Below are positions 6,682 to 64,000 of a stretch of 64,000 bases of DNA, piece after piece. The stretch lies in assembly GCA_017463865.1 (NCBI GenBank), contig JAFTOI010000003.1, positions 5,219-69,218 on the forward strand, in the 5' to 3' direction. Each line of letters opens with the position of its first letter. Position 1 is the stretch's first letter. Both the position numbers and the translations under genes were made by a program. The DNA comes from Clostridia bacterium. Lineage in GTDB: Bacteria > Bacillota > Clostridia > Oscillospirales > CAG-272. The notes below the pieces were generated by a model that worked only from the letters and a program-made list of their open reading frames with translations, was not told the origin of the DNA and did not search any database.

Positions 6682-6707
6682 ACGACAACAGAATTTTTTG
6701 GGGTTTC
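6682..6707 (-). promoter_or_regulatory. Weak ECF-type promoter candidate GAAAC-N18-CGTG
   Basis: Minus strand GAAAC (6703..6707) and CGT (6682..6684). The spacing is 1-2 nt longer than the usual AAC-N16/17-CGT. Confidence 0.25.
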
Positions 6708-6736
6708 TGCAATTTTTTTCGCGCTCCCGCGCGATG

Positions 6737-6840
6737 GAGGGCGGGGAGACACCATCTCAGACGCCGAAGTTTTCTCCCCGCCCTCTTGCCGCCCGTAGGG
6801 CGGCAATTCACCCACCCCACTTCCTTGGCTTTCCTTGGCT
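6737..6840 (+). repeat. Dispersed two-hairpin repeat, copy A
   Basis: Hairpin 1: GAGGGCGGGGAGA (6737..6749) pairs with TCTCCCCGCCCTC (6773..6785), 23-nt loop. Hairpin 2: TTGCCGCCC-GTA-GGGCGGCAA (6786..6806). Tail TTCACCCACCCCACTTCCTTGGCT. An inverted second copy lies at 53741..53846. Confidence 0.85.
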
Positions 6841-6887
6841 ACGGTGCGAAAAATCGTCGTACAAGCGCAAAAAATCCCCCTGATTGC

Positions 6888-6916
6888 TTGACTTTTTCGC
6901 ATGAAAATGCTATAAT
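6888..6916 (+). promoter_or_regulatory. Sigma-A promoter TTGACT-17-TATAAT (alaS)
   Basis: -35 at 6888..6893, -10 at 6911..6916. The leader is only about 25 nt, leaving no room for a T-box. Confidence 0.8.
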
Positions 6917-6947
6917 GATTTATCTATGATTTTTAACCAGAAAGGTT

Positions 6948-9590
<2,643 letters not shown>

Positions 9591-13091: not shown

Positions 13092-14137
13092 TACACCAGA
13101 TAGCGATTGACCACCGGGATCTTCCCCAGCGCCCACGACGCGGCCGCGCTTAGGACGAAGACGATCAGCGCGCTCAGCGGCACCGTGATGACCGGCGCGA
13201 ACGCATCGGCTGTCAGCCCCAAACCGGCCAGCAGCTTGATGAAGAAATCATGCACCAAGTAAATGCCAAAGGTCAGCCGGGACAGCGTCATGACCACCTT
13301 GCCGCGCAGTTCGGTCTTCGGCGCCGCATTGGCACGGCGCCGGAACAGGAGAAACATCGCGGCGGCGGTAAAATAGGTGTTGGGCAGGAGATTGCCGAAC
13401 CAGGTGGTATTCCCCACGCCATCCCGCACCGACAGGATCGCCGTCGCGGCAACCGTGAAAACCAGCGACACTCCGCCAAGCAGGCATATTGCTCGCTCGA
13501 ACCGGCGCGGGAGCGCGTAGGATGCGAGGTAATGCCCAAGCACGAAATAGCCGGTGCAGCCAAGGAAAAACTCAAGATGCAGCTTGGCCATCGTCGCCTC
13601 GACGATGGCGGTCAGCGGCGGGATCAGCTTCAGCGTGTTGACGCAGATGACCGCAAGGAAGGAAACGAGCAGGAAATACTCCGCGCACCGCCGCTCCCGG
13701 CAAATACAGCGCAGCATGGGCGTCGCGATGTAGAGCCCCATCATGGTGAAGAGGAACCACATGTGATAATGCCCGTAGGCAAAATCGCGCCAGAAGGCCG
13801 GCCAGTCGGCGGCATCGGGCAGCAGCACATTGAAGGTCACCGAATAGGCCAGCGACCAGAAGAGGAATGCCGTCACCATGCGCAGCAGATGCCGCCCAAA
13901 CAACCTGCGCGGCAGCACCTCACGCTCCGGCGCGAGGAAGACCGCCCCCGAGAGCATGAAGAATACCGGCACGCTGAAGCGCACCAGCGCATTGAACAGA
14001 TTGATCGCCTGCCACGTCAGCTCGGCCGGCGGCAGGCTCTGCCACGGGCCGGCGCAAACATGCAGTACGACAACGCAGAACGCTGCGAAGATCCGCAGGC
14101 GGTCAAGGTAAGGCACACGTTGTGCAGTTGTGGTCAT
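13091..14137 (-). CDS. Acyltransferase family 3 membrane protein (O-acyltransferase)
   Basis: About 10 TM helices. N-terminus RVPYLDRLRIFAAFCVVVLHV is typical of acyltransferase_3. GGAGGTG RBS. Confidence 0.75.
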   Translation of the reverse strand: MTTTAQRVPYLDRLRIFAAFCVVVLHVCAGPWQSLPPAELTWQAINLFNALVRFSVPVFFMLSGAVFLAPEREVLPRRLFGRHLLRMVTAFLFWSLAYSVTFNVLLPDAADWPAFWRDFAYGHYHMWFLFTMMGLYIATPMLRCICRERRCAEYFLLVSFLAVICVNTLKLIPPLTAIVEATMAKLHLEFFLGCTGYFVLGHYLASYALPRRFERAICLLGGVSLVFTVAATAILSVRDGVGNTTWFGNLLPNTYFTAAAMFLLFRRRANAAPKTELRGKVVMTLSRLTFGIYLVHDFFIKLLAGLGLTADAFAPVITVPLSALIVFVLSAAASWALGKIPVVNRYLV

Positions 14138-14161
14138 CGGACACCTCCGTCAAAGAAAACA

Positions 14162-14181
14162 GGGCGGACTTTCGTCCGCCC
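14162..14181 (-). terminator. Rho-independent terminator of the glycan-uptake operon
   Basis: Minus strand GGGCGGAC-GAAA-GTCCGCCC followed by TGTTTTCTTT. It lies 38 nt after stop 14219 and 25 nt before the acyltransferase ATG. Confidence 0.7.
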
Positions 14182-14218
14182 CGTTTGGAGTTTTGATTTG
14201 TTTGCTTCGGCCGCGGAA

Positions 14219-15277
14219 TTAACCGGTGATACCGGAGCGCTCGATACCCTGGATGAGGTAACGCTGGCAGAAGAGGTACATGATGATCAGAGGCATAATG
14301 ATCATCAGACCGCAGGTATTACGGATTGCAGCGTAATACAGGTTCTGGCCGGCATAGTTCATTTCCAGAGACTTCGGAATGTCGATGATATCGGGCATCA
14401 GAGTCGTCTTGGTGGTAGTGAAGAACAACGTCGTGTAGAAGTCGTCGGTCCACTGCCACGAGAAGGCGAACAGGAAGACGGTGATCATCATCGGGACGGA
14501 CAGCGGGAGGATGATCTGGATGAAGGTACGGAACACGCCCGAACCGTCAATATAAGCAGACTCCTCAAGTTCGTCCGGTACGCCGCGGAAGAACTGGCGA
14601 AGCATGAAGATGTACAGACCGTTCTTGAAGCCCAGGCCGCACATCGACAGGATGATCATCGGCCAGTAGGTGTTGGTGAGGTTGAGCTCCGCAAAGGGCA
14701 GAATCTTCAGAGACTCGATGACACCGCCGCCCAGCAGGCTGAAGATGCCGAGGATATCGAAGTAACGGAACTGCATGAACAGCGAGAGCTGCAGGGTCTG
14801 GTGCGGAACGACCATGGTCAGGACAACAGCCAGGAAAACCAGATTGTTACCCTTGAACTTGAACTTCGCAAGACCGTATGCAACAACGCAGCAGACGAAA
14901 GTCTGGATCAGCGCGGTGGAGACCGAGAGAACCAGCGTATTCACGAAGGCCTCCCAGTAACCGAGCTCATTGATGATCGCCTTGTAGATATCCAGCGTGA
15001 AGTGCTTGGGGATCAGGCGAACCGTTACATCAACGAAGTCTTCGGGAGCCATGAAAGAACCCGAGATCTTAGAGAAGAACGGGAAAAGGATGACGTAGGA
15101 GATACCCACGAGAAGAACGAGACGGAAGATAAACCAGACTACCTTCTGGACAAAGAACAGCGAGCCGAACTTGGCCATCAGTCTTTCCTTGAGAGGGGTT
15201 CTTTCGAAATCGACCTTGATCTTGTTCTTCGATTCCTTCATTACAGCAGGAGCTTTTTGCATGTTTTGTGCGTCCAT
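14219..15277 (-). CDS. Carbohydrate ABC transporter permease (MalG/LplC-like), second pair
   Basis: Six predicted TM helices, EAA-type loop (ESAYIDGSGVFRTFIQIILPLSVP), long basic N-terminal extension. Confidence 0.85.
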   Translation of the reverse strand: MDAQNMQKAPAVMKESKNKIKVDFERTPLKERLMAKFGSLFFVQKVVWFIFRLVLLVGISYVILFPFFSKISGSFMAPEDFVDVTVRLIPKHFTLDIYKAIINELGYWEAFVNTLVLSVSTALIQTFVCCVVAYGLAKFKFKGNNLVFLAVVLTMVVPHQTLQLSLFMQFRYFDILGIFSLLGGGVIESLKILPFAELNLTNTYWPMIILSMCGLGFKNGLYIFMLRQFFRGVPDELEESAYIDGSGVFRTFIQIILPLSVPMMITVFLFAFSWQWTDDFYTTLFFTTTKTTLMPDIIDIPKSLEMNYAGQNLYYAAIRNTCGLMIIMPLIIMYLFCQRYLIQGIERSGITG

Positions 15278-15289
15278 TGTTTACCCTCC

Positions 15290-16261
15290 TTAATCCCTTC
15301 TCTGGTAGAAGACATATGCCGACATGACACCAGCAACAGCCGCGATGATCAGCATGACGATAATGAAGTACATCCAGGACATTGCGGAGGAGATGACGTT
15401 ACCGTCAGCCTGCTCGTAAACGCCGGAGATAAAGGTCATGACTTGGTTCGATTCGGATGTGAAGGAGTCGATGATGGTATAAATGCCGTTTACCAGGATC
15501 ATGGGACTGATCATCGGGAAGGTGATCTTCCAGAAGGTTTCCCATGCGGTTGCGCCGTCGATCGAGCAGGACTCGTAGATGGCGGGCGAGATGGACTGCA
15601 GGCCGGAGAGGAAGATCAGCATCTGTACGCCGGAACGGTTGACGATGTTATAGATGTTGTTGATCATCGTTGTAACATAGGTAACCAGTTCTGAACCGAC
15701 CTTCATGTTGGCGAACAGTCGTTCGACGTCCATGGCGGAGACAAGCTCGGAGGCGACGCTCTCGCCGGAGCCATCGTTGATACCTTCGGAGCCTTCCATG
15801 TACTCAGACATGATGTTCTGTGCGTCGATCGACTCGATCAGACCGGTGGACAGGATGACCGGGACGAAGAAGATCGCACGGAACGCTGCACGGCCGAACA
15901 TCTTCTGGTTCAGCAGAACAGCCATGAACAGGGAGAAAATAACGATTGCGGGGATATCGAAGCAAAGCTGCTTCAGACCGGAGACCAGCGTCTTGACGAA
16001 GTCAGGGTCGACAAAGAGGGCCTCCTGATAGTTCTGCAGGCCAACCGGGAGCAGCTCGAAGCCGCCGCCCGTGATGGGCTTGATGCGATAGAAACTCAGA
16101 CGAATGGACTCGATGATAATGGGAAGGTAGATGATGAGGAAGCCAAGCACGAACGGGAGGACGAAGACCCAACCCGCGCGAGCCTTCTTCCGGTCAAGAG
16201 AAGCGGGCCGCTTATTTTTCGGCGCGGACTTAGCCGCAGTTTTTGTATTCGTCATATTCAC
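15290..16261 (-). CDS. Carbohydrate ABC transporter permease (MalF/LplB-like), second pair
   Basis: TM-rich. EAA loop ESCSIDGATAWETFWKITFPMISP. Confidence 0.85.
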   Translation of the reverse strand: MNMTNTKTAAKSAPKNKRPASLDRKKARAGWVFVLPFVLGFLIIYLPIIIESIRLSFYRIKPITGGGFELLPVGLQNYQEALFVDPDFVKTLVSGLKQLCFDIPAIVIFSLFMAVLLNQKMFGRAAFRAIFFVPVILSTGLIESIDAQNIMSEYMEGSEGINDGSGESVASELVSAMDVERLFANMKVGSELVTYVTTMINNIYNIVNRSGVQMLIFLSGLQSISPAIYESCSIDGATAWETFWKITFPMISPMILVNGIYTIIDSFTSESNQVMTFISGVYEQADGNVISSAMSWMYFIIVMLIIAAVAGVMSAYVFYQRRD

Positions 16262-16272
16262 ACCTCTCTTTC

Positions 16273-19200
16273 TTAGTTAATACGGATGAAACCAAACTCG
16301 GGGATGGTGTAGGTCGTGCCATTGTCAACAACGGTAACGGAGAAGTAGTTGTAGTTGAGGTAGAAGACGACGCCGCCTTCGTAGGTGACCTTCACAATAC
16401 GACCGTCATCGGTGGTGTACTTGGTGTACTGGTAGCCTTCCTCTTCCTCGGTCTCGATGATGAAGCTGGGCGTGCTGGTTGCAGGCTTCTCAGCGGGGAC
16501 ATAGACCTCGCCGGCCTCTTCGGCCTTACGCTTTGCGCGGGCCTCCTCGAGGGCTGCCTTGCGGGCTGCTTCCTCTTCCTTGGCCTTCTGCTCAGCTGCT
16601 TCAGCTTCAGCTGCGAGCTTATCTGCTTCGATCTCGTCTGCGTCGGGCACACGCTCACCGATGAGGAACTCATGGTCAACGATCAGCTTGGTCTGCAGAT
16701 CCTTGGTGACCTCATTGAGAGCCTGGTAGCGCTCGACGAGCTCGTCGAACCAGATATCATAGCGGACGGAGTAGTACTGGCTGAACTGATAGTCTTCCTT
16801 CAGCTTCTCGGTGTTCTGATAGGACAGCGTGAAGTAGAGGGATGCGCCGTTCTCGATGGCCTTAAGGAAATCGTAACCGATGTCACCGGCCATGTTGATC
16901 GGCGTGCCGGCGAACTGTACGCGGCCGTGGAGAACCATACCCATGAACGGGATGGAACGGCTGGCCTTGAGGAAACGGGAGGAATCCAGCGGTACATTGA
17001 GCAGGTGGTCGACATAGGGCAGCGCGTAAGCGTTACCGCCATCAGCCATGACATTCGCGTAATCCTCGCTGATCTGCTTGAGCATATCAACGGTGAATTC
17101 CTTGTTGTCCTCGCGGTTGTACGGTTCGTCTTCATCGAAGTCGGAGTTCAGATCGGATGCGAGGGTGGAGACCGAAATACCGGTGTTCTGGTATTCCTGG
17201 TACTCCTTGTTGAGCTTATCGTAGAAGTACGAGTAGTAAGCGGGCGAGATGGCCAGCTCACCGTAGCTCTCGAAGGACTGGTAAGTTGCGGAATAGTAAC
17301 GACGGGAAGTGTAACGGTCGTCGATGGTCTTGATGGCGTGCTTCTTGAGGTTCAGGCTGTCGAAGAGCATGTTCAAATCGGTGTACGCGAAGTCAAACTC
17401 AGGGTACACACCGAAGCCCTTCTCCTTGGAATAATCGACCAGATCCTGGAAGCCGTCGGCACCGCCGACTGCCTTTTCCCACTCCAGCTTGCCGGGGATC
17501 TCACTGTACATACCGCCATTGGCGAAGCCGGTGAGACGGAAGTTGATGTTGGTGATGCCCTCTGCGGAGAGCTCGTTGTACATGGTCTTGATATCCTCGA
17601 AGGTGGTCAGAGGCGTCATCACGTTGACCGGGATGGACATGATCTTCTCGAGGGTCTCAAGAGTACCGAACGACTCAATGTACAGCGGAACATCGGTCTT
17701 GACATCCGCCTCGGTAAGGCGGGTCAGGATGCCCTTGGATTCCCAGTAATCGCCGACCGCCTTAGCCATACCGGTGTAGGTAGGCTCATAGGTGTTCTCG
17801 AGCTTGTTAGCCTCAGCGATATCGGGATCGGTCAGCATGATGACGCGGATCTTGTAGTTGCCGACGTACTTACGGTCGGAAACGACAGTCCAAGTCGCGT
17901 TGGAGCCGACGGAGATGGCATCGCGGAGGTTGTAGGAGTCCTTCGGACGCGGCACGACGATGGTCGTGACCGAGTGGAACATGTGGAGCTGACCGCCGTG
18001 GATGGAGGAAACCTCAGCCAGTGCGTCACCCTCTTCAATGATGGCAACGAAACCGCGATCCTCGCTGTACTCGTAATCCTCGTTCTTGGTGCCCATCACA
18101 GCCTCGGTGGTGACGCCGGTGGTGGGATCGGTGGTCGCTTCGGAGATGACGTACTCCACTTCACGGGTACGGGTGTCGGTGATATTCTCAACCAGACCGT
18201 AGACAGGCATACGCATGGTCTCAAAGTGTGCACCCGAGACATTGTGGTATGCGAAGTCCATGCCGTAGAGCTTACCGGTCAGGGTGGTGGAGGACAAGGC
18301 TGCGACATCCTCAAAGTTGATGATGGCACCCGAGCCGTCGGGGATCAGGGTGTAACCGGTGTTCGGGGAAGCGCCGGCGCCCAGATAGGGCAGCACCTGA
18401 ATGTTGGTGAGCTGATACTCGGACTCGTCGAAACGCAGGCCGTTGAAGGGGACGCGGATGTTCATGCCCCACTCGTCGAGGGTATACTCGATGGCAAGGC
18501 GGAAGAGTGCGGGAGCGCGGTCGGCGCCTTCGTACTCGGTCTCAGCGTGGACTTCGTCCAGCGTTTCATAGGTGAACAGGGGGCACCATTCCTTGATGTA
18601 GCCCTCGATGGTGTTCAGGTCGTTCTCAGTTGCGGTGGGGTCGAAGACGTAGACCGCCATCTTCTTGGTGATCGGGAAGGTCGAGTGCAGCTCCAGAACG
18701 GCGCGCTCGGACTCTTCCTGAGAGGGATCCTTCAGGGTGTAGAAGGCTTCGACCTTCTTATAAGCCCAGCTGTCCTCAATGTTGGCCAGGATCAGATTTT
18801 CGAGCTTGGACTTCTCGATCATACGCGGGACCAGCTTACGGGTCTCCTCGCGGCCGATGGTGTACTCGATACGCACACCGTTCTTGATGCTCTTAACCTT
18901 GATCTGCTTACGGACAGCGGCCTCCTGGTAGCTGTAGAAATACTTCTCCTGGTCATTATCGGTGTACTTGATAATGATCTGGGACATCAGCTGCTTCTTG
19001 GTGGACTCAGAGCCATTGGAAGCAGCAACGTTGTAGGGGTTGGTGAACATGGTCTGGCCGCTTGCCAGATTGGTCCATGCGACCTCGCCCGAGTAGTAGT
19101 CTACATACACCTTAAAACCGTAAAGGTCTTCGATCATGACGTCCATGGTCGCAAGCTTTTCTTCGGGCGTCTTGAACTCCTTCGTCACATAGTTGATGAT

Positions 19201-53911: not shown

Positions 53912-54277
53912 GGTACTCCGCTGAACGATCGCGTGGCGTCAGGCCGAAAGGTATCGCCATGAGGAAAGTCCGGGCTTCACAGGGCAGGATAGCTGATAAC
54001 GTCAGCCGAAGGCGACTTCAGGGAAAGTGCAACAGAAATAGACCGCCGCCATCTGGCGGCAAGGATGGAAAGGCGAGGTAAGAGCTCACCGGCACGACAG
54101 GCGACTGTGTGCAAATGTAAACCCTATCCGAAGCAACACCGCAGTCGGAGGCTTGCCCGGCATATCTCCGCAGGTGGCATGCGGCGACCGAAAGGGACCC
54201 GCGGAGCGGTATGGCGACATACCGCACAGATAGATGATCGTTCACGACAGAACCCGGCTTACAGGCGAAGTACCACC
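53912..54277 (+). ncRNA. rnpB: RNase P RNA (bacterial, type-A-like)
   Basis: Universal GAGGAAAGTCCGGGC near the 5' end, GGGAAAGTGCAACAGAAA, and ACAGAACCCGGCTTAC near the 3' end. P1 pairing GGTACTCCGC / GCGAAGTACC. Ends are approximate (+/-5 nt). Confidence 0.92.
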
Positions 54278-54321: not shown

Positions 54322-55044
54322 TCACATCTGCGCGCGAAACGCCTTCCAGAAGCCGCTGTAGGACTGATATCCCACCTCAAGTGCGATCTCGGACAGCGAC
54401 AGTTGCCCCTCCGCCATCAGCTGACGCGCCGCCTCAAGCCGACTGCGGGTCAGCATTTCGCGAAAGCCGCAGCCGGTGTGCCGACGCACCAGCCGCGCTG
54501 TCTGCTTCTCGGACAGCCCCAGACGGCCGGCCAGTTCCCCAAGCGTCGCTTCGCGGGCATAGTTTTTGGCAAAAAATTCGGCGATCAGAAAGCCGCGGTC
54601 GCGGATCGGCTCGGTCGGATCTGCCTGCGCGGCAACGATCTCGGCACAGATCACAGCCAGCACCGGGGCCAGCCGATGACTGCTCCCGACCGCAAGATAG
54701 CGCTCAATCGCGGCGCAAAGCTGATCGGCGATCCCGTCCGGCAGCGCGATACAGCGCACCGTCTCGACTGGATACAGCATCTGAAACGCAATGTGGCGCG
54801 TTCCCGGTGCATACACCCGGCTGGCGTGAAAAAGGCCGGGCGGCACGACCAGCATCTCGCCCGCCCCAACCGTCAGCCGCCGCCCCTCGGCGGTATACTC
54901 CCCCCGCCCCGACGCGATGATCTGCACCTCGGTGCAGTGGTGCCGGTGGAGCGCATTGGACTGTGCGCGAAAGGAGAAAAAGCCCTCCTGCATAAAAATG
55001 CGGACAGCCTGGTCAGCGACAGTAACGGTCATCTCTCGATCCAT
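54322..55044 (-). CDS. AraC-family transcriptional regulator (cupin sensor + HTH)
   Basis: Trimmed to ATG 55044 (GAGG RBS). C-terminal AraC HTH (LSLSEIALEVGYQSYSGFWKAFR). Confidence 0.85.
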   Translation of the reverse strand: MDREMTVTVADQAVRIFMQEGFFSFRAQSNALHRHHCTEVQIIASGRGEYTAEGRRLTVGAGEMLVVPPGLFHASRVYAPGTRHIAFQMLYPVETVRCIALPDGIADQLCAAIERYLAVGSSHRLAPVLAVICAEIVAAQADPTEPIRDRGFLIAEFFAKNYAREATLGELAGRLGLSEKQTARLVRRHTGCGFREMLTRSRLEAARQLMAEGQLSLSEIALEVGYQSYSGFWKAFRAQM

Positions 55045-55185
55045 ACATTTCCTCAACAGACATCACACGCGCGTGATGTCCCTTTTCAATATTGCAATCC
55101 CCCTCGCTTTGTGGTAGGATAATACCAAAGGGGGGGTCCTCTTTATTATACCAGCAAATCTGCAGAAAGTCAAAGGAATTTCACA

Positions 55186-56283
55186 ATGAAAATCGAACTT
55201 CTCGGCGCGCCGCGCGTCATCATGCAGAACCCCGGCAGCCTTCATAATTACTTCGCCTGGCCCTCGGTGACCCGCCTGCCCGACGGCCGCATTGCCGCAG
55301 CCGCCTCGGGATACCGCCTCGCCCACATCTGTCCATTTGGGAAAGCCGTCATGGCCGTCTCGGCCGACGAGGGCGAGACCTACGCCCCGCCCATGCCGGT
55401 CATCGACACCGTCCTCGACGACCGCGATGCCGGCCTCTGCCCCTTCGGCGAGTCGGGGCTGATCCTGACCTCCTTCAACAACACGACTGCCTTCCAGCGC
55501 AAATCCGGCCAGGGCGGCGCTTACCGCGACGCCTACCTCGACCGCGTCACGCCCGAGGCTGAGCAGGCAGCCCTCGGCGCGACCTTCCGCATCAGCCCCG
55601 ACTGCGGCATCACCTGGGGCCCGCTCCATCACTCGCCCATCACATCCCCCCACGGCCCGACCGTTCTCGCTGACGGCACTATACTCTGGGTCGGCCGCAC
55701 CTTCAGCCAGAACAACGCCTTCCGCATCGACGTCGACTGCGTCATGGCCTACACCCTCGATCCCACCACCGGTGAGATGACCTATCGCGGCCGCATCGAC
55801 GACATCTTCGACGGCGACACCAAGCTCCTCTCCTGCGAGCCGCACGCCCTCCAAATGCCCGACGGACGCATTATCTGCCACATCCGCGTCCAGGGATACG
55901 GCACCACGAATGATCGCTGGTTCTTCACCACGTATCAGAGCGAATCGGCCGACGGCGGCTATACCTGGTCGACACCAATCCCCCTGCTGCCCCGGGACGA
56001 TGGCGCACCGCCCCACCTGCTTCGCCTGACGAACGGCATTACCGTCTCATCCTATGCGATTCGCCGCAAGGATGCGTACAGTATTCGCGTGATGCTCAGC
56101 CGTGACGACTGCCGCAGCTGGGAGACTGATTTTGTTCTGGCCTGCCATGATGTGACCCCCGATCTGGGCTATCCCGCTACCGTTGAACTAAATGACGGCA
56201 GCCTGCTGACCGTCTATTATGCACACCCCGCCAAGGGAGAACCGGCTGTGATTATGCAGCAGAAATGGAGGATTGTCGAATGA
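55186..56283 (+). CDS. Cytoplasmic BNR/Asp-box beta-propeller protein (sialidase-like)
   Basis: Four Asp-box motifs (SADEGETYA, SPDCGITWG, SADGGYTWS, SRDDCRSWE). Possible RIP-type motif TRLPDG. No signal peptide. Confidence 0.7.
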   Translation: MKIELLGAPRVIMQNPGSLHNYFAWPSVTRLPDGRIAAAASGYRLAHICPFGKAVMAVSADEGETYAPPMPVIDTVLDDRDAGLCPFGESGLILTSFNNTTAFQRKSGQGGAYRDAYLDRVTPEAEQAALGATFRISPDCGITWGPLHHSPITSPHGPTVLADGTILWVGRTFSQNNAFRIDVDCVMAYTLDPTTGEMTYRGRIDDIFDGDTKLLSCEPHALQMPDGRIICHIRVQGYGTTNDRWFFTTYQSESADGGYTWSTPIPLLPRDDGAPPHLLRLTNGITVSSYAIRRKDAYSIRVMLSRDDCRSWETDFVLACHDVTPDLGYPATVELNDGSLLTVYYAHPAKGEPAVIMQQKWRIVE

Positions 56284-57173
56284 ATCCCAACAACATCAAA
56301 TTCACCGGCGTCATGCCCGCCCTCATCACCCCGCTGACCGCTGACGAGCAGGTCAACGTCCCTGTCCTGCATCAGCTGATCGACACCCTGCTCGCACAGG
56401 GGGCCGACGGCTTCTACATCGGCGGCGCCACCGGTGAGGGCATCGCCCTGCGGCAGGATGTCCGCGAGGTGCTTGCCGCCGAGTCGATCAAGGCCATCGC
56501 CGGCCGCAAGCCGGCCATCATTCACATCGCCTCGGCCGATTTCGGCGAAGCAGTTACCCTGGCCAAGCAAGCCGAAGCGGTGGGCGCTGACTGCATCTCG
56601 GCCATCCCGCCGATGTTCTACAGCTACGACGAAGACGAGGTCTACAACTACTACAAAGCCCTCGCCGACGCCGTGTCGATCCCGCTGCTGGTCTACTACA
56701 ACCCCGCCGCTGGCTTCAACATGCGCGCCGACTTCGCCGCCCGCCTCTTCACCATCGACAACGTGACGGCCATCAAGTGGACCAGCTCCGACTATTACGG
56801 CATGCTGCGGCTGAAGGATCTCACCCACGGCGAGATGAACATCATCAACGGCCCCGACGAGATGCTGCTGATGGGCCTCGGCGCCGGCGCCGACGGCGGC
56901 ATCGGCTCGACCTACAACGTCATCCTGCCGCTCATCAAGGGCGTCTACGAAAGCTTCCGCTCCGGCAATATCGCCCAGGCACAGCTGTGCCAGACCAAGG
57001 CCGACCGCATCATCGCGGTGCTGATCAAGTACAAGGTCATCCCCAGCATCAAGGCTGTGCTGGAGGGACAGGGCATCCCTGTCGGCAATGCGGTGTTCCC
57101 GATGAAGCGGTACAGCGCGGAGGAGAAGGCGCAGCTCTACGCCGACCTGCGCACGGCCGGAATGGAGATCTGA
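56280..57173 (+). CDS. nanA: N-acetylneuraminate lyase-like enzyme (DapA/NanA family)
   Basis: ATGA overlap with the upstream stop. GVMPALITPL...GGATGEG. Schiff-base lysine context AIKWTSSDYYGMLRL resembles E. coli NanA ALKQTSGDLYQMEQI (from memory). Confidence 0.7.
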   Translation: MNPNNIKFTGVMPALITPLTADEQVNVPVLHQLIDTLLAQGADGFYIGGATGEGIALRQDVREVLAAESIKAIAGRKPAIIHIASADFGEAVTLAKQAEAVGADCISAIPPMFYSYDEDEVYNYYKALADAVSIPLLVYYNPAAGFNMRADFAARLFTIDNVTAIKWTSSDYYGMLRLKDLTHGEMNIINGPDEMLLMGLGAGADGGIGSTYNVILPLIKGVYESFRSGNIAQAQLCQTKADRIIAVLIKYKVIPSIKAVLEGQGIPVGNAVFPMKRYSAEEKAQLYADLRTAGMEI

Positions 57174-57178
57174 CAGTG

Positions 57179-57212
57179 AAAAAGGCTTTCCCGCACGGGA
57201 AAGCCTTTTTTT
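57179..57212. terminator. Bidirectional rho-independent terminator
   Basis: AAAAAGGCTTTCCC-GCAC-GGGAAAGCCTTTTTTT between convergent genes. Confidence 0.85.
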
Positions 57213-57216
57213 ATGC

Positions 57217-58464
57217 TCAGATATGCCCGATATCCTCAGTCTCGATCTTCGTCTTATCGGCCGGGATGAGCGCATCATCGAAGTGGATCATCACATTCTC
57301 GCCCGCCAGCCGCGCCTGCAGCGTCGGCACGTCGATCGCTGTGATCGCGCAGCCGGCGTCAATGGCCTGCGCGCAGGCCGCGCCGGCCGCCTGGCCGGTC
57401 AGAATGGCCGGCGGAATGACGCGCAGAACGTCCCACGCATAGCCCTCGCCCGCCGCGCAGCGGCCGACGGCGATGACGTTGTCATAGCCGTCCCGCACCA
57501 GCGTGCCGTAGGGCACCTCGTAGAGGAAATCACGGCGGTCAAAGTCGCAGATAGCTGCGATCGAGTCGTCGAAGTGGCGGTAGGCATCCTCAACCTGCAG
57601 GGTGTAGTTGCCGTCGATACGCCGCGTCGTGCGGAACTGCGGCATGATGGGCAGCAGCGTGATGTCGCGGCTCTTGCGGTCCTCATCCTTGATCTTCTCT
57701 AACAGCTCGATCTGGTTCTGGCAGAGGTAGGCGGTGACATCGTCGCCGTTCGTGCCGTCCCAGAGGCGCATGCCCTCGGGATGGTTGCCGCCGTAGAGGT
57801 TTGCGTGACCGCCGCTCCGGGTGGCGCGCAGCTTGCCAATATCCTCCGCCTCTACCGCCTTCCGGCAGGACTCGAGGGTCGCCGCGAAGGCGATATAGGT
57901 GTGAAAATTGCCCCGCGTAACGGTCGGCACGCCGGCCTGATACAGCACATCAGCGTCGCCGGTGGCGTCAACAAACATGTCGGCGGTGTAAAGCGAATAC
58001 CCCGACTTGTTGAAAACGACCAGCCCGTCGATATGCCCGCCTGTGGTACGCGCCTCGGTGACAATGGTATCGAAGCAGATGTCGACGCCCGCCTCAGTCA
58101 GCGTTTTGCAGAGCACCAGCGAGAAAATGGGCGCCGAATAGCGACAGGTCAGGCGGCGGTCGGTCTTGCCCTGCCCCGGCTCGCCATTCTGCCAAACGGC
58201 GGGTATGGTGTCAAAGCCGTACTCGACCGACAGCCGCAGGAACTCGTCGGCCATGCCCTTGATGATCTGCACGCCCCGCCCATTGCACAGGGGAACAAAG
58301 AGGTTGATCAAGCCAATGGTGCCAAGCCCGCCCAACTGCGTGGTCTTCTCGATCAGCGCGACCTTCTTGCCGCTGCGCGCGGCCTCCAGCGCGGCGGCGC
58401 AGCCGGCGACACCGCCGCCGGCGACGAGGATATCATAATGACGTTCGTGAACGAATTGCATCAA
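57217..58464 (-). CDS. FAD-dependent oxidoreductase
   Basis: N-terminal dinucleotide fold YDILVAGGGVAGCAAALEAARSGKKVALIEK. 415 aa. Confidence 0.8.
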   Translation of the reverse strand: MMQFVHERHYDILVAGGGVAGCAAALEAARSGKKVALIEKTTQLGGLGTIGLINLFVPLCNGRGVQIIKGMADEFLRLSVEYGFDTIPAVWQNGEPGQGKTDRRLTCRYSAPIFSLVLCKTLTEAGVDICFDTIVTEARTTGGHIDGLVVFNKSGYSLYTADMFVDATGDADVLYQAGVPTVTRGNFHTYIAFAATLESCRKAVEAEDIGKLRATRSGGHANLYGGNHPEGMRLWDGTNGDDVTAYLCQNQIELLEKIKDEDRKSRDITLLPIMPQFRTTRRIDGNYTLQVEDAYRHFDDSIAAICDFDRRDFLYEVPYGTLVRDGYDNVIAVGRCAAGEGYAWDVLRVIPPAILTGQAAGAACAQAIDAGCAITAIDVPTLQARLAGENVMIHFDDALIPADKTKIETEDIGHI

Positions 58465-58547: not shown

Positions 58548-58576
58548 TATTATATCAGGCATATTCCGCATTGTCA
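58548..58576 (-). promoter_or_regulatory. Perfect consensus sigma-A promoter TTGACA-17-TATAAT (FAD oxidoreductase)
   Basis: Minus strand: -35 at 58571..58576, -10 at 58548..58553. Confidence 0.85.
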
Positions 58577-58643
58577 AGGGAACAACCAATATTTTGTCTG
58601 GCGTTATTTCACATATTCGCTGCCTTTATGCAAGGCAGTCAAG

Positions 58644-59543
58644 TCAATTCTGCAAGACGCTGAACACATACAATGGATGGCCGTCGACGATCGTATAGAC
58701 CTTGCACACGCACATCACCGAGCTTGCCCGTGAAATGCTGAACAACAGCTCAGCGCTCCCGTCTCCGTCCGCGTCGCCGAATTGAACCGTGGGCGTGTAC
58801 CGCAGATCGCGCAGATCAAGCTCACCCTGCATCGTGGTGAACACGGGGCAGGTGATCCACGCGCCGTTCTCGTCGGTCTGGATCACGGAGAAACCATGAT
58901 CGAATTGAATCTCCGTCCCGGCCATCGGCGGCGCATAAGAAGATGACACCCCCTCCGACCCCAGCGCCGCCGTGTGGATCGGACAGATCATTTCGTGCAG
59001 AAGAATAGGCGGCTCCTCACCCCGAAGCAGGACAGAGATGGAGTAGATGCAGGTCTGCGCGGCAGCAGGGCAAACGGGCGCCGGATAGTCGCCGTCGGCC
59101 GTGTAGATGACAGCACTGCCGCTCTCCACGGCATTGCTCGCGGTCACGATCACCGTTTCCTGCCCTTCCCACGCATATGCCCATGCCTCCCGGATCACCA
59201 CAGGCACATCGGAGAAGCCAGCCTCGGCCAAGCGGGCGCGGATCGCTTCGCTCCACGCGGCCTGCCCCGGCTGAGCCTCGGGGGTATATGCGGTATAGGC
59301 CGCCGCCTCGGTTTCGATGGCTTCGAATTCGGCAAAGGTGAGCTGAACGTCCGTCACGGCGTCAGCTGTGTCAACCACAGGTTCTGCCTGCGCGGGCTTG
59401 ACGGCAGGCTCGACTGCTCCGATCGCAATGGGAGGCGGCTCTGGCTGGTGTTGACAGCCAACAACAGTTAGGCAAGCAGGAATGAGCAGGCATACAGCCA
59501 GCACGGCGGGCCTGCGATGTACATACTTGGGATATTGCATCAT
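58644..59543 (-). CDS. Lipoprotein, unknown function (one FG-GAP/VCBS-like DADGDGSAELL motif)
   Basis: Lipobox LTVVGC. Pro/Ala-rich linker. 299 aa. Confidence 0.6.
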   Translation of the reverse strand: MMQYPKYVHRRPAVLAVCLLIPACLTVVGCQHQPEPPPIAIGAVEPAVKPAQAEPVVDTADAVTDVQLTFAEFEAIETEAAAYTAYTPEAQPGQAAWSEAIRARLAEAGFSDVPVVIREAWAYAWEGQETVIVTASNAVESGSAVIYTADGDYPAPVCPAAAQTCIYSISVLLRGEEPPILLHEMICPIHTAALGSEGVSSSYAPPMAGTEIQFDHGFSVIQTDENGAWITCPVFTTMQGELDLRDLRYTPTVQFGDADGDGSAELLFSISRASSVMCVCKVYTIVDGHPLYVFSVLQN

Positions 59544-59628
59544 GGGTTCCTTCTTTAATTTATCTTTAATCTTTAATGAAAAGAAATTGAAGCGGTTGTC
59601 AAGCTATTTCGGCGCACGGGAGCTGTTA

Positions 59629-61062
59629 TCAGCCTGCCCCATACAGGAACAGGATCCGTTCCATCTCCATTTGTCCATTCCGGTACGCATACTCGATCAG
59701 GATCTCGCCGCAGGTCTCCCGCCCCCCGGACTGACAGAGCGACCGGCAGACCAGGCGGTCATTTTCGATGGTATAATAAAAATAATGATCATAGGACAGC
59801 GTGTCAGCGGTTTTTGGGAAGGTATACGTCGTCCGCCCTGCGGTGAGGCGCCAGACCGACGCATCGCTGGCCAGCCGCACCTGCTCCGCCAGGATCTGCT
59901 CAGCGGGGACATAGGGGATCTCCTGCAGGGTAACGCCGTCAAAGAGGCAGGGCATTTCGGTATAGACAACGATATCCGCGCTGTCGTCCGGGTTCAGACA
60001 AACCGCAGCCATGCCGGGGACAGACAGTGTCGATTCGCCGGTGAAGGTGACGGTCTGATCCCCGGCGGCGAGGGTGAATGTACCGGCCTGCTCCCCGGGG
60101 GTGATGCTGACCGGTGAGGCTTCGGTGCCGCTGTCGGCGGACGGGAGCATCTGCATCGGATCGCGGCACTCTACCGTTTCGATAGTGCCGTCCTCCAGTC
60201 TGATCACATGGGTGCGGTCATGCAGGCTGAAGCGGAAATGCCCAGTCTGCGTCTCGCCCTCCAGCACATTTTCCTCCGCCCAGCGCAGGCAGCCCTTCAG
60301 GTATTCTTCGCTCGTCTGGGCAAACCAGCGCACATAGGGCAAAAGCGTGTTTGCATGTCCGTAATACATCGCGCTGGAAAAATCCATGACATAAAACTGC
60401 CCATGGCCGATCTGCACTGTTACCCTGTCCGCCCCGTTCCATGTGAACGTCAGCTGATCTTGCAGACCAGCTCCCACCTCCAGATACATGCTATATCCGG
60501 TGGACAGATCGATGCCCTTCACCAGCCGTTCGGGATAATCACGCACATAAATGCAGATATCACCAAACCGAACATAGGGCTCGGCGATGCCGTCGGAGAC
60601 AGGGATGAAATAGGCAAGATTCGGGTGCCACCCGATGCCCGCCACCTCCTCCGGTGAGCGAACCTCGGTGCTCCACGGCTCAAAACCCACATAGAGGAAA
60701 TAGTCCCCCACCCGGTATTTCAGCTGGATCGGCCATTGGGTACGGGTATCGTTGGAAAGGATCTCGGCATTTTCCAGCGTCAGTGGCTCGGTCAGCGCAA
60801 GTCCCTCCGGCAATGGTTCATAGTGGATCGGGTAGTACGGAGTGTCGGGCTGGCCGTTGTAATAGGCGCACAGCTCGTCCAGCTTGGTCTGCACATAGGC
60901 CAGATCCGACGCAAGAAACATTTCCCGTGCGTCCAGTTCGCCGCGGCAGTAGGCAATGTGGATCTCCTCGCCGGTCATGTGGGCAAAGGGAGGAACTGGG
61001 GTATCGACGGGGGGGCTCAGTAGGCTGAGCAGGAGAATGGCAGCAATCAAAGCAGGCTTCAT
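59629..61062 (-). CDS. Secreted protein, unknown function
   Basis: 477 aa with an N-terminal hydrophobic signal (MKPALIAAILLLSLLSPP). The start overlaps the radical-SAM gene stop by 4 bp. Confidence 0.6.
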   Translation of the reverse strand: MKPALIAAILLLSLLSPPVDTPVPPFAHMTGEEIHIAYCRGELDAREMFLASDLAYVQTKLDELCAYYNGQPDTPYYPIHYEPLPEGLALTEPLTLENAEILSNDTRTQWPIQLKYRVGDYFLYVGFEPWSTEVRSPEEVAGIGWHPNLAYFIPVSDGIAEPYVRFGDICIYVRDYPERLVKGIDLSTGYSMYLEVGAGLQDQLTFTWNGADRVTVQIGHGQFYVMDFSSAMYYGHANTLLPYVRWFAQTSEEYLKGCLRWAEENVLEGETQTGHFRFSLHDRTHVIRLEDGTIETVECRDPMQMLPSADSGTEASPVSITPGEQAGTFTLAAGDQTVTFTGESTLSVPGMAAVCLNPDDSADIVVYTEMPCLFDGVTLQEIPYVPAEQILAEQVRLASDASVWRLTAGRTTYTFPKTADTLSYDHYFYYTIENDRLVCRSLCQSGGRETCGEILIEYAYRNGQMEMERILFLYGAG

Positions 61063-61703
61063 GGCAGCTCCTTTCCGGTTGATTTGCTCGGCAGGCGGTA
61101 GGTGAAGCGGTCGAGCTGGGTCACGCCCATGGCACGCAGGCAGTCGGCTGCCGCGTCTGCGGCGGCATCATCGGCGTAGCCGGGAATGGTGGGCACGCGG
61201 GCGATGATGCGCGCAGGACCGACGCGGTCGAGCAGCCAGCCGAGGTTGTCCCGGACACGCTCGCTCCCCTGCCCCGTGTAGGCGCGGTAGGCCGCGTCGT
61301 CGCCGGCTTTGATGTCGACGATGAAGATGTCGACCGCCTCGGCGGCCAGCTCGACCGCAGAGCGGTCGACGGCGAGGCTGGTCTCGAGATTGATCGTCCA
61401 GTCGGGGCCGCAGACGGCGCGGAAAGCGGGGAGAAAATCGGCGTAGAGCAGCGGTTCGCCGCCCCCGAAGGTGACGCCGCCTCCCGTCGCGCGGAAGTAG
61501 AGGTCGTCGATCTTGAGGATACGATACAGCCCCTCGGGCGTATAGTCGCGGGTGGGCGTCCCTGCCGCCCACGACTGCGGATTGAGGCAATACCGGCAGC
61601 GCAGGGGGCAGCCGTAGCCGCAGACCAGCGTGGTCACACCGACGCCGTCGCTGGCCATGCGCAGCCGTGAGATGCCGAACGCGCGGAAAATGGGCGCGCT
61701 CAC
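61059..61703 (-). CDS. Small radical-SAM enzyme, glycyl-radical-activase/NrdG-like
   Basis: 214 aa. DGVGVTTLVCGYGCPLRCRYCLNPQSW carries the CxxxCxxC cluster motif in the activase-type context. GGGEPLL SAM-binding motif. Confidence 0.75.
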   Translation of the reverse strand: MSAPIFRAFGISRLRMASDGVGVTTLVCGYGCPLRCRYCLNPQSWAAGTPTRDYTPEGLYRILKIDDLYFRATGGGVTFGGGEPLLYADFLPAFRAVCGPDWTINLETSLAVDRSAVELAAEAVDIFIVDIKAGDDAAYRAYTGQGSERVRDNLGWLLDRVGPARIIARVPTIPGYADDAAADAAADCLRAMGVTQLDRFTYRLPSKSTGKELP

Positions 61704-62299
61704 GGGTTTTTGCGCGGCTCGGTGACTGCGACAGTCACGGCCTCACGCACCTCATCGGGATCGGGCAGGTCGGGCGTGGGGCCGATGCCGCCGGCGATGG
61801 CCGTTTCGAGGGCTGTGGTTTCGGTTTCGGGTACAGGCAGGGCAATGTCGCCCATCAGTGTCTCGACCGCCGGCTCGCCCTGCAGGGGTTCGGGAATAGG
61901 CAGGACCCCCATTTCTGCGGTCATCGGCGGCTCGGTGGTGGTCTCGGCGGCGATCAGTTCACCGGGGATAGCGGTGGCTGTCTCAGTCTGCTCGGTGCCG
62001 GTCGATTCGGGCATCATGGCGCCCTGCAGCGTTGTGCCACGGCTGAACGGATTATCGCAGGACGACAGATTGGTCGCTAAGAGGCCCATCGACAGCCCCA
62101 TCACCGCGATGCGCTGGCCCAGCGAGCGGCGCTGGGCCAGCTCGCCCTCGAGCCGCTTCAGCTGTGCCTCGCAGTAGGGGCAGGTGCCCCGGCAGTCGCC
62201 CGTGTGGGTGCAGTCGCGCTCGTTGTAGTCAAGCTGGTTGGCCGCGGCGATGTCGCGGCGGATCTGGCGCAGGATATTGCATTTTTGCTTGCCGGTCAT
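61700..62299 (-). CDS. Cys-motif (C-x5-C-x3-C-x2-C) single-pass membrane protein with an acidic Pro/Thr/Glu-rich ectodomain
   Basis: 199 aa. N-terminal KCNILRQIRRDIA...DCTHTGDCRGTCPYCE, a coiled-coil segment, a TM helix (IAVMGLSMGLLATNL), then a low-complexity tail. GGAGG RBS. The stop overlaps the radical-SAM start by 4 bp. Confidence 0.65.
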   Translation of the reverse strand: MTGKQKCNILRQIRRDIAAANQLDYNERDCTHTGDCRGTCPYCEAQLKRLEGELAQRRSLGQRIAVMGLSMGLLATNLSSCDNPFSRGTTLQGAMMPESTGTEQTETATAIPGELIAAETTTEPPMTAEMGVLPIPEPLQGEPAVETLMGDIALPVPETETTALETAIAGGIGPTPDLPDPDEVREAVTVAVTEPRKNP

Positions 62300-62413: not shown

Positions 62414-64000
62414 TCAGCCGATCTCAACCAGACCTGCGCAAGGCACGTCGAAGAGGTAAGTGCCAGCCTCCAGGGTAAACTGCCGCTCCTCGATCAGCTC
62501 GCCCGTGCAGGCATAGACGCGCAGCGTCTTCTCGCCGCTCGGGGCGGCGGTGCGGAGGTAGAGCCAGCCGTCCGCGGTGGCGTTGAACATGCTCAGCCGC
62601 TCGACGCGCTCGACCGACAGGACGGGCTTGGTGTGCAGGGCGGCGATAAGGTGGCCGTCGCGCTCGGCCTTGACGACGGTATAGAGGGCCTCGGGATTCT
62701 CGGCACTGAAACTGCCGTGGAGCAGGGTGTCGCGGTTGGTGCGCCAGAAGCGCAGGAAGTGGGCGAGAGCCTTCCGGTGCGATTCGGGGATCTCATCGAG
62801 CTTGACCGAGATCTGCGGGACGTAGAAAAGGGTGTCGATCAGCTGCATGGCGACCGACTCGACGGGGTCGTCGTTGTGCCACATCAGCATATCCGAGTGG
62901 GGGGCCGAGCCGCCGAGGGCGAGGCGGAGGTTAGTGCCGCGGGTATGATTGGCGAGGCCGCTGTTCGGGCAGTCGCTGACGCGGATCATGTTGCCGTAGT
63001 GACAGATATTGGGGCCGTAGTAGGACTGACGGAATTCGATCATCATGTCGGGGTTGATGGACAGCAGGGCCTCGGTCACGTCGCGCAGCAGCCAGTCGAC
63101 GCCCTGCTCGAGCGAGCGGGTGTCCCAGCGTTCGTCAAAGGCGGGGGTGTGCGGGCCCAGCTTGAAGGAGTCGATGAAGTCGAGCTTGAAGCCGTCGAGG
63201 CCCCATTCGCGGGCGGCGCGGGTGTAGATGTCGGTCAGGTAGGCGCGCACGGCGGGGAAACGGGGGTCGAGGCAGGCGGCGCCGAGGTGATTGACCGGCC
63301 CGAGGAACATGCGCTCGGCCTCGAAGTGGGAGAATATCTTGCTTTCCTTGCCCACGAAGGGCACTGAGTACCAGAGGACGAACTTCATCCCCTCGGCGTG
63401 GACGCGGTCGACAAATTCGCGCATATCGGCCACCTTTTCGGAGATCGGCTCCCAGTCGCCGCAGGTGATGTAGCCCCGCTTGCCCCAGGCGATCTGCCAG
63501 CCGTCGTCAACAATGATGGTATCCATGCCCATGGCCTTGGCCATGCGGCACTGGGCAACGATGGCATCGACGTCGACGGCCTGATGGAAGGAATACCAGG
63601 TCGAATAGACCGGCCATTCGGCGGCGTCGGGGACGGGCGCGGGGGCGTAGCCCGCGTCGCGCCAGAAGGCGTGGACGCCGCGCATGGCCGCCTCGTAGGG
63701 GATATCGGTGGTGTCGATGCGGACGGAGGCGTGGTAGCGCTCGAGCTCATTGATGGGCTCGGTGAAGAATTTGACGGTGCAGACAAACTCGGCCGTGTGC
63801 TCATCGATGCCGGTGGTGATGGCAGTGGGGGTGGCGGCGTCGGAGAGGGCGACGGTGAGGCGGTTGCGGCCGCCGAGCGAGATGAGCTGCTGGACGGGCG
63901 CGCCCGACGCGAGGCGCGCGTCGGAGACGCGGGGGCTCCAGCTGACGCCGATCTCGCGGTTGTGGGCGTGGCCAGGGCAGTAGACCGAGTAGACATCGGC
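62414..64000 (-). CDS. Glycoside hydrolase, alpha-galactosidase-like (GH36/clan GH-D); 5' end lies beyond the window
   Basis: The ORF track starts at Met 63685, but the frame stays open to position 64000 (I translated 63686..64000 by hand and found no stop). Motifs STWYSF, IIVDDGW, CGDW, GMKFVLW, LDGFKLDF. Confidence 0.7.
   Translation of the reverse strand, partial: ADVYSVYCPGHAHNREIGVSWSPRVSDARLASGAPVQQLISLGGRNRLTVALSDAATPTAITTGIDEHTAEFVCTVKFFTEPINELERYHASVRIDTTDIPYEAAMRGVHAFWRDAGYAPAPVPDAAEWPVYSTWYSFHQAVDVDAIVAQCRMAKAMGMDTIIVDDGWQIAWGKRGYITCGDWEPISEKVADMREFVDRVHAEGMKFVLWYSVPFVGKESKIFSHFEAERMFLGPVNHLGAACLDPRFPAVRAYLTDIYTRAAREWGLDGFKLDFIDSFKLGPHTPAFDERWDTRSLEQGVDWLLRDVTEALLSINPDMMIEFRQSYYGPNICHYGNMIRVSDCPNSGLANHTRGTNLRLALGGSAPHSDMLMWHNDDPVESVAMQLIDTLFYVPQISVKLDEIPESHRKALAHFLRFWRTNRDTLLHGSFSAENPEALYTVVKAERDGHLIAALHTKPVLSVERVERLSMFNATADGWLYLRTAAPSGEKTLRVYACTGELIEERQFTLEAGTYLFDVPCAGLVEIG

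Follow-up and report, generated by a model that had tools for sequence, protein, structure and literature searches.

A question raised by this locus is what a small radical S-adenosylmethionine (radical-SAM) enzyme related to the activases of glycyl-radical enzymes (GREs) acts on when no GRE is encoded beside it. The enzyme is the product of gene 2 (61059-61703, minus strand; 214 residues, GTG start; GenBank MBQ8396645.1, annotated 'radical SAM protein') in a 64-kb stretch of contig JAFTOI010000003.1, hereafter the window. Its start overlaps the stop of gene 1 (61700-62299, minus strand; 199 residues; GenBank MBQ8396646.1, annotated 'hypothetical protein'), which encodes a protein with a conserved cysteine-rich N-terminus. 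The source record of both genes is a Clostridia metagenome-assembled genome. Our analysis suggests that this pair, which occurs in thousands of gut and rumen bacteria, is an undescribed protein-modification system. With a probability of roughly one half, we read genes 1 and 2 as a two-gene maturation system in which the likelier substrate of the enzyme is the N-terminal tag of the gene 1 protein, with its five cysteines and three glycines, and not a GRE.

By its profile matches and its predicted structure, the gene 2 product is a minimal PflA-type radical-SAM enzyme that lies outside every curated activase family. Pfam detects only Radical_SAM (63 bits) and Fer4_12 in the protein, which has more than 6,000 homologues and carries GYGCPLRCRYCLNPQSW. 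Across 46 of the homologues, the three cysteines of the cluster motif C32-x3-C36-x2-C39 are invariant, as are D19, G20 and G22 of a DGxG loop that aligns with DGPGIR of PflA. The SAM motif GGGEP occupies residues 80-84, its GGE being invariant, and E107, T108 and D130, also invariant in the family, align with PflA D104, T105 and D129. These three PflA residues form a monovalent-cation site, and loop A of PflA closes over the peptide substrate (PMC10267522). The nearest solved structure by sequence was that of Escherichia coli PflA (3c8f; E 6e-26 with a profile of the 46 homologues). An AlphaFold2 (AF2) model of gene 2, with a predicted local distance difference test score (pLDDT) of 92.6, matched PflA 3c8f/3cb8 in Foldseek with a template-modelling (TM) score of 0.82 and a root-mean-square deviation of 2.1-2.4 Å; the second fold match was QueE (TM 0.72). 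Given this fold and the invariant cluster, loop, SAM and cation-site motifs, the enzyme looks catalytically competent, and on the same comparisons it belongs to the clade whose members take a hydrogen from a backbone glycine.

The best NCBIfam matches of gene 2 were all to GRE activases, each below its curated cut-off: TIGR02494 was the best (121.4 bits against a cut-off of 174.35), and the others were TIGR02493 (PflA; 86.1 against 231.75), TIGR04041 (49.3 against 250.2) and TIGR02495 (NrdG2; 47.3 against 131.15). Gene 2 lacks the ferredoxin insert of TIGR02494, and its match to that family is therefore split into two stretches. No SPASM or twitch auxiliary domain was found in the protein, which at 214 residues ends with the core barrel, and SPASM-family NCBIfam models matched it at E > 0.008 only, over the core. 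The original prediction, made from the nucleotide sequence of the window, of an activase-type enzyme without an auxiliary-cluster domain agrees with these Pfam, profile and fold matches. A defence-system identity was considered and rejected, as PADLOC gave viperin-like matches to the radical-SAM core only, none of them significant.

Activases of this type would be expected to stand beside their GRE, and the same prediction had held that gene 2 does not. A tblastn search with the glycyl-radical domain of E. coli GrcA bore this out, with no match anywhere in the window and none in the 22 loci that hold close homologues of the enzyme (L001-L022). The search did find a glycyl-radical domain 2.5-3 kb downstream of the radical-SAM gene at L023 and L024, which carry the most distant enzyme homologues fetched (31-41% identity), and these two loci serve as a positive control showing that the search works. 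Close orthologues of gene 2 are not next to nrdD or pfl, an arrangement that would have spoken for a conventional activase. The pattern R[VIT]xG[YFW] matched twice in the window, once in a BNR sialidase-like protein and once in an antisense open reading frame (ORF), and both matches were taken as chance.

What stands beside gene 2 in place of a GRE is a protein that looks like a folded cytoplasmic Cys domain followed by a putative signal peptide and a variable exported part, as judged from sequence features and modelling. The Cys domain (residues 1-60; 62120..62299, minus strand) is the conserved N-terminal part and is predicted to be cytoplasmic. The AF2 model places a helix at residues 3-20, a Cys loop at 21-40 and a second helix at 41-60, with pLDDT of 72-90 over the domain. 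The loop motif C30-x5-C36-x3-C40-P-x-C43 is CTHTGDCRGTCPYC (residues 30-43), and a fifth cysteine is C7. Among 317 unique sequences, 16 of the 60 positions are at least 98% invariant (G3, C7, L10, R14, A18, N21, C30, G34, C36, G38, T39, C40, P41, C43, E44 and E51), including all five cysteines and three glycines. His32 is replaced by Tyr or Phe where it is absent and, being just 76% conserved, is unlikely to be a metal ligand. The domain had no Pfam, NCBIfam or PADLOC family match, and a fold search of the Protein Data Bank with the gene 1 model gave no match. A HMMER search with residues 1-82 returned at least 2,571 representatives of 50%-identity clusters. In the 150 best of these, the Cys domain lies at or near the N-terminus of proteins of 83-415 residues, and none is fused to a radical-SAM domain, as judged by length and match position.

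The original prediction had described gene 1 as C7 and a Cys motif followed by a coiled coil, a transmembrane helix and an ectodomain. C7, the Cys motif, a helix, a hydrophobic stretch and the ectodomain are all present, but the hydrophobic stretch ends in a canonical lipobox, L-S-S-C81, that had been overlooked. As read from the sequence, this signal-peptide-like segment (residues 61-81; 62057..62119, minus strand) consists of a positive edge, RRSLGQR, and a hydrophobic region of about 17 residues (...LLATNLSSC81) that runs into the lipobox. In the family alignment C81 is nearly invariant, and a loose lipobox-like pattern occurs in 185 of 212 members, most commonly as LSSC, LTAC, LTSC, LASC or LAAC; some Bacteroidales members have an A-x-A-like site in its place. 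The segment departs from the norm for lipoprotein precursors, in which a short positive N-region of about 5-7 residues comes first, in that its hydrophobic region follows a conserved helical Cys domain of 60 residues. The twin-arginine likeness of RRSLGQR was judged superficial (R57 is Arg in 86% and R58 in 60% of the 317 sequences), and a twin-arginine translocation signal was rejected. The predicted exported region (residues 82-199; 61703..62056, minus strand) is rich in Thr, Pro, Glu and Ala and disordered, with AF2 pLDDT below 50. Elsewhere in the family the exported part is variously a disordered acidic Thr/Pro/Glu linker, a TonB_C domain with or without CarboxypepD_reg, a domain of unknown type or almost nothing. 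The TonB_C-bearing relatives belong to Bacteroidales (P0179-P0187, P0290, L109, L110 and Segatella copri), and many are labelled 'energy transducer TonB'; Pfam found no TonB_C (PF03544) in gene 1.

The association of the two genes is not peculiar to one genome, which was one way in which the proposed pairing might have failed. It recurs in Clostridia and Bacteroidales, usually with the genes adjacent and on the same strand. In the window, gene 1 ends ...AAA AAC CCG TGA, and the GTG start of gene 2 is embedded in its TGA stop as GTGA at 61700-61703 (minus strand; read from CCGTGAGC), an overlap that implies that translation of the conserved pair is coupled. About 9 nt ahead of the gene 1 ATG is a GGAGG, and an Rfam scan found no riboswitch or other RNA element near the operon. 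On three unrelated contigs whose enzymes are about 54% identical, the Cys-domain gene is immediately upstream and overlaps or abuts the enzyme gene, with two copies in L001; same-strand overlap or direct abutment was found at L001, L003, L004 and L006-L008. A survey from the enzyme side covered 22 loci, in 15 of which the partner is adjacent and in one of which two copies lie 3-5 kb off. A survey from the tag side covered 80 metagenomic loci, with the enzyme scored at more than 100 bits and absence deemed evaluable where at least 2.5 kb was available on both sides. The enzyme gene was present in 46 of these, 27 were too short to judge, and 46 of the 53 evaluable loci therefore have it; in 35 of these 46 loci the enzyme gene comes next downstream, on the same strand.

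Clustering of neighbouring ORFs over more than 100 loci returned two conserved families only, plus their antisense shadows, and no third conserved gene family beside the pair. The divergence of paired enzymes and tags is correlated (Mantel r 0.56, a value reached by 0 of 2,000 permutations), which points to co-inheritance and not necessarily to contact. Some individual neighbours can be named. In L001 (4237-4794, 6666-7589) an NrdR regulator gene lies upstream of the pair and a gene for a DUF4349 protein downstream, and in L026 a ThiF-family gene (6696-7424) overlaps the enzyme stop; none of these recurs across loci.

Several loci hold more than one tagged gene. In tandem arrays of 2-7 Cys-domain genes, the tags are nearly the same and the C-terminal parts differ. 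Five tagged genes follow a single enzyme gene at L097, two are present at each of L092, L098 and L078, and the radical-SAM gene is single wherever it is present in an array locus (L097, L092, L098, L078 and S. copri). Other arrays have no radical-SAM gene in the stretch covered (seven tagged genes at L091, four at L060 and four at L072). With many paralogues of different cargo per enzyme, the arrangement looks like a modifying enzyme and its set of substrates, and a dedicated electron donor would be expected to show a different pattern. The seven paralogues at L091 (800-8192; Ga0310696_10000025) are spaced about 1 kb apart, and the last runs to the end of the locus. They have an A-x-A-like site and no lipobox, and their C-termini resemble CarboxypepD_reg/TonB_C by eye only; no radical-SAM gene occurs within the 8 kb covered there.

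The hosts of the pair are Clostridia (Oscillospiraceae) and Bacteroidales (Paludibacteraceae, Prevotellaceae and Bacteroides) of ruminant, horse and human gut. In the cultured strain S. copri HDE06, plasmid NZ_CP137558.1 carries two tagged TonB_C lipoprotein genes, annotated 'energy transducer TonB', and then the enzyme gene, annotated 'radical SAM protein' (13820-16308; L108 7992-10480); a tag and enzyme pair of this strain has the accessions WP_218413588.1 and WP_218413590.1. This cassette is flanked by transposases, integrases and a relaxase/MobC pair, and, given its position between mobile-element genes, it travels as mobile-element cargo. Another arrangement, on a fecal scaffold, combines three tagged TonB genes and the enzyme gene with genes for a ParA-like protein and an integrase. 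A phage origin was considered and rejected: the tag occurs in only 3 of 2.9 million viral contigs, and two fecal scaffolds labelled 'Bacteriophage sp.' are unverified records whose genes are bacterial or from integrative elements. On MT838070.1 (L110, 141-7215), labelled 'UNVERIFIED Bacteriophage sp.', the enzyme gene and then a tagged TonB_C protein gene lie between genes for an AddA-like protein (UvrD helicase plus nuclease) and an AddB-like protein (PD-(D/E)XK), and the enzyme start overlaps the helicase stop; this record looks bacterial, not phage.

By what mechanism, then, might the enzyme act on the tag? The fold and motifs of the enzyme, the absence of a GRE neighbour, the linkage, the pattern of one enzyme with many partners and the conservation of the tag against variable cargo are the observations from which we infer the tag to be the substrate. 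The gene 1 pre-protein would be made and its N-terminal domain would fold in the cytoplasm around a metal center, iron-sulfur or zinc, held by C30, C36, C40 and C43. The enzyme would then dock on the Cys domain, cleave SAM reductively and abstract a backbone C-alpha hydrogen. The most likely site would be an invariant glycine, either G34 or G38 of the G-x-C-x-G-T-C-P loop or G3, and the reaction may leave a radical on the protein or a covalent change derived from a radical, for example a thioether from Cys to C-alpha. The hydrophobic segment would thereafter carry the variable C-terminal part across the membrane. This chemistry is the more tentative part of the proposal: it is possible, at odds that we would place well short of even, that a metal-binding tag ahead of the signal peptide of an envelope protein receives from the enzyme a backbone (glycyl) radical or a cross-link derived from a radical.

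Several points weigh against a tag-modifying role. To our knowledge, the protein substrates of the activase clade are all large GREs, and no motif of the RVxG[YF] type is present in the tag. Thioether-forming radical-SAM enzymes normally carry auxiliary SPASM or twitch clusters, and gene 2 has none. The C-x3-C-P and C-x3-C-x2-C spacings of the tag would equally suit a small iron-sulfur electron carrier. The linkage also has exceptions on both sides: at 5 of the 22 enzyme loci (L013, L016, L017, L020 and the truncated L019) no partner lies within the flanks, and seven evaluable Cys-domain loci have no linked enzyme. Four of the five unlinked enzyme loci belong to Paludibacteraceae/Porphyromonadaceae, with the enzyme among housekeeping genes, and enzyme and tag genes also occur unlinked in Bacteroidales.

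An alternative role for the Cys domain, proposed in the original prediction, is that of a redox or scaffold partner. An iron-sulfur tag would give an electron or a cluster at the membrane to the enzyme, whose substrate would be elsewhere, either an unlinked GRE or a small molecule. We regard this role as unlikely, while placing it first among the other explanations. It would account for five invariant cysteines with the spacings given above, and it fits with the absence from gene 2 of the ferredoxin insert of larger activases and with the standing of QueE, a small-molecule enzyme, as second-best fold match. Weak, non-significant matches of the Cys domain were to Fer4_7 (E 0.07) and, in TIGR02494, to the region of the ferredoxin insert (E 0.17). 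An electron donor, however, need not be fused ahead of the signal peptides of up to seven cargo proteins per locus, and PflA-type enzymes normally use soluble flavodoxin. Moreover, no candidate substrate gene is conserved nearby.

Another possibility, which we place next and also consider unlikely, is that the pair works as a leader-and-core system in the manner of ribosomally synthesized and post-translationally modified peptides (RiPPs). The Cys domain would serve for docking, and the enzyme would attack glycines of a short motif in the not yet folded C-terminal region, in the cytoplasm and before export. The motif, [LIVMF]-x-G-[DE]-hydrophobic and often then Pro, occurs in gene 1 as IPGEL (61955-61969), LQGEP (61871-61885) and LMGDI (61844-61858), all on the minus strand. 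In the exported regions of 309 non-redundant family members with a hydrophobic (transmembrane-like) segment, drawn from both phyla, 487 copies were counted against 58.5 expected by shuffling, an enrichment of about 8-fold, and 74% of the members have at least one copy. About a quarter thus lack it, and copies are few in the long TonB_C-type members; the motif is also low in information and lies within compositionally biased sequence. The hydrophobic-x-Gly pattern is reminiscent of V-x-G in glycyl-radical sites, and RiPP loci typically have several precursors for one enzyme. No precedent is known to us, though, for a signal peptide placed between leader and core, and a backbone radical on an unfolded exported chain would have no obvious stable product. 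Rare family members have no hydrophobic segment, namely P0312 (199 residues), L021 5295-5765 and L097 6756-7154; the L021 protein and the fifth gene of L097 still carry the motif, as a leader-and-core system would lead one to expect. The C-terminal region of P0312 resembles, by eye only, the helix-hairpin-helix C-terminal domain of the RNA polymerase alpha subunit.

It is also conceivable, at a probability that we consider very low, that gene 2 is an ordinary activase that serves a pyruvate formate-lyase or an anaerobic ribonucleotide reductase encoded elsewhere, and that its adjacency to the Cys gene is meaningless. The PflA fold and motifs are those of such an enzyme, yet its scores fall far under the PflA (86 versus 232) and NrdG (47 versus 131) cut-offs. 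An NrdR regulator gene is located just upstream of the L001 cassette, and in some Bacteroidales the enzyme gene is found on its own, surrounded by housekeeping genes. Meaningless adjacency, however, is hard to reconcile with same-strand neighbours kept in dozens of loci of two phyla, with stop/start overlap in several, with a pair that moves together on the S. copri plasmid and on an integrase-bearing element, or with the correlated divergence of the paired proteins.

Least probable of all, and highly so, is that gene 1 is a membrane-bound zinc anti-sigma or signaling protein whose Cys domain holds a transcription factor, the enzyme having an unrelated role: the layout of cytoplasmic domain, transmembrane segment and outside domain is that of anti-sigma factors, P0312 has the polymerase-like ending just mentioned, and C7...C36-x3-C40-x2-C43 resembles what we take to be the zinc site of RsrA (C11...H37-x3-C41-x2-C44), a lead only, but the Cys domain has no match to zf-HC2 or another anti-sigma Pfam family at E≤1, its profile aligns with RsrA at an hhalign probability of 0.2%, its predicted fold is two helices and not a four-helix bundle, and no sigma-factor gene is conserved beside the pair, the neighbors in the window being a melibiase-like glycosidase and secreted proteins.

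How would a tag-modifying pair compare with known systems? Gene 2 shares with PflA and other GRE activases a partial TIM-barrel (TM 0.82), a similar size, the CX3CX2C, DGxG and GGE motifs and the cation site, and like PflA it is without the ferredoxin insert of larger TIGR02494-type activases; it differs in scoring below every curated cut-off and in having no GRE encoded nearby. The partners differ as well, PflA acting on the C-terminal glycyl-radical domain (about 60 residues) of an enzyme of about 85 kDa, whereas gene 2 is paired with a Cys-rich tag plus signal peptide of about 80 residues. Anaerobic sulfatase-maturating enzymes (anSMEs) follow the same logic, in that one cytoplasmic radical-SAM enzyme modifies an N-proximal motif of many exported paralogues before export, and their genes, like those of the pair, are sometimes adjacent to the substrate genes and sometimes scattered. 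In contrast to gene 2, anSMEs have about 370 residues and a SPASM domain with two auxiliary clusters, and their target is the Cys or Ser of C/S-x-P-x-R in the mature enzyme, not a folded domain before the signal peptide. RiPP maturases (SCIFF, sactipeptide and ranthipeptide) likewise have a Cys-rich conserved region encoded beside a radical-SAM gene, with tandem precursors per enzyme. Unlike gene 2, they carry a SPASM/twitch or RRE domain; no NCBIfam precursor or maturase model matches the pair, whose Cys region is the N-terminus of full-size membrane or exported proteins.

The tag itself may be compared with ESPR of autotransporters, YSIRK and KxYKxGKxW, which are also conserved N-terminal extensions on unrelated exported passengers. 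Those are short, unstructured stretches without a radical enzyme dedicated to them, whereas the tag is a 60-residue Cys-rich domain that probably folds and probably binds metal. Gene 1 also has the anchor and proline-rich linker layout of the TonB family, and many Bacteroidales tag proteins end in TonB_C; canonical TonB differs in having TonB_C together with a short N-terminus that has no Cys domain or lipobox. The enzyme clade, the candidate substrate family and the position of the tag before a signal peptide are all unusual for a pair of radical-SAM enzyme and protein substrate, and full-text literature searches found no published description of the pair.

The protein targets known for the glycyl-radical activase clade are all of one type. 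If the tag is indeed modified, it would be the first protein substrate family outside the GREs for this clade, and the modification would be a post-translational mark of a new kind that depends on anaerobiosis. The known uses of the minimal radical-SAM scaffold would be widened by a large sister family whose conserved partner is different. As for biological purpose, the export or anchoring of TonB-like and other surface proteins could be gated by such a mark, or the mark could serve them as a switch that oxygen cleaves, and it would be relevant to gut and rumen Clostridia and Bacteroidales, S. copri included. In abundant anaerobes of gut and rumen the partners belong to the cell envelope, and many of these proteins are now annotated 'energy transducer TonB' or 'hypothetical'. 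Since only two small genes are involved and they are available on a plasmid of a cultured S. copri strain, the question is readily testable.

Genes 3 and 4, which follow the pair in the window, are on present sequence comparisons lineage-specific neighbors and not parts of the system. Gene 3 (59629-61062, minus strand; 477 residues) has an N-terminal hydrophobic signal or anchor and is preceded by a ribosome-binding site, GGAAAGGAG. Its ATG overlaps the TGA stop of gene 2 as ATGA at 61059-61062 (minus strand; read from GCCATGAAG), where gene 2 ends ...CTG CCA TGA. Gene 4 (58644-59543, minus strand; 299 residues), a putative lipoprotein, begins after a gap of 85 nt. On direct reading, all four minus-strand ORFs, the two 4-bp overlaps and the gap lie where they had been placed. 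The further suggestion of a four-gene envelope module did not hold, as only genes 1 and 2 are conserved. By tblastn over about 27 related loci, a partial gene 3 homologue occurs in the closest relative (L005) only and a gene 4 homologue in none, and with no third family recurring beside the pair both genes were rejected as members. Gene 3 has no Pfam, NCBIfam or PADLOC match. Gene 4 had been described as a lipoprotein with an FG-GAP-like motif; it does contain lipobox-like sequences (IPAC, VVGC) and the motif FGDADGDG, within FGDADGDGSAELL, although it has no Pfam or NCBIfam family match and none to FG-GAP at E≤1. At L007, by comparison, the pair is flanked by genes for a major facilitator superfamily transporter and, on the opposite strand, a phosphodiesterase-like protein, and the gene that follows it is unrelated and lies on the opposite strand.

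A melibiase-like glycosidase gene (62414-63685, minus strand) lies upstream of gene 1, and ABC exporters are also among the window genes near the pair. Beyond gene 4 are genes for a FAD-dependent oxidoreductase of the FAD_oxidored type (57217-58464, minus strand), a DHDPS/NanA-like lyase (56265-57173, plus strand), a BNR_2 sialidase-like protein (55186-56283, plus strand) and an AraC regulator (54322-55056, minus strand), which together (54322-58464) resemble a carbohydrate or sialic-acid-like utilization cluster. Just downstream of gene 4, at 58549-58577 on the minus strand, is a sequence that matches the sigma-70 consensus perfectly (TTGACA and TATAAT spaced by 17 nt, plus the TG of an extended -10) and faces the oxidoreductase gene, which suggests that the latter starts its own transcription unit. 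No tRNA genes were found in the window. Its sole Rfam match is a full-length bacterial RNase P RNA of class A at 53913-54277 on the plus strand (234 bits, E 8e-75).

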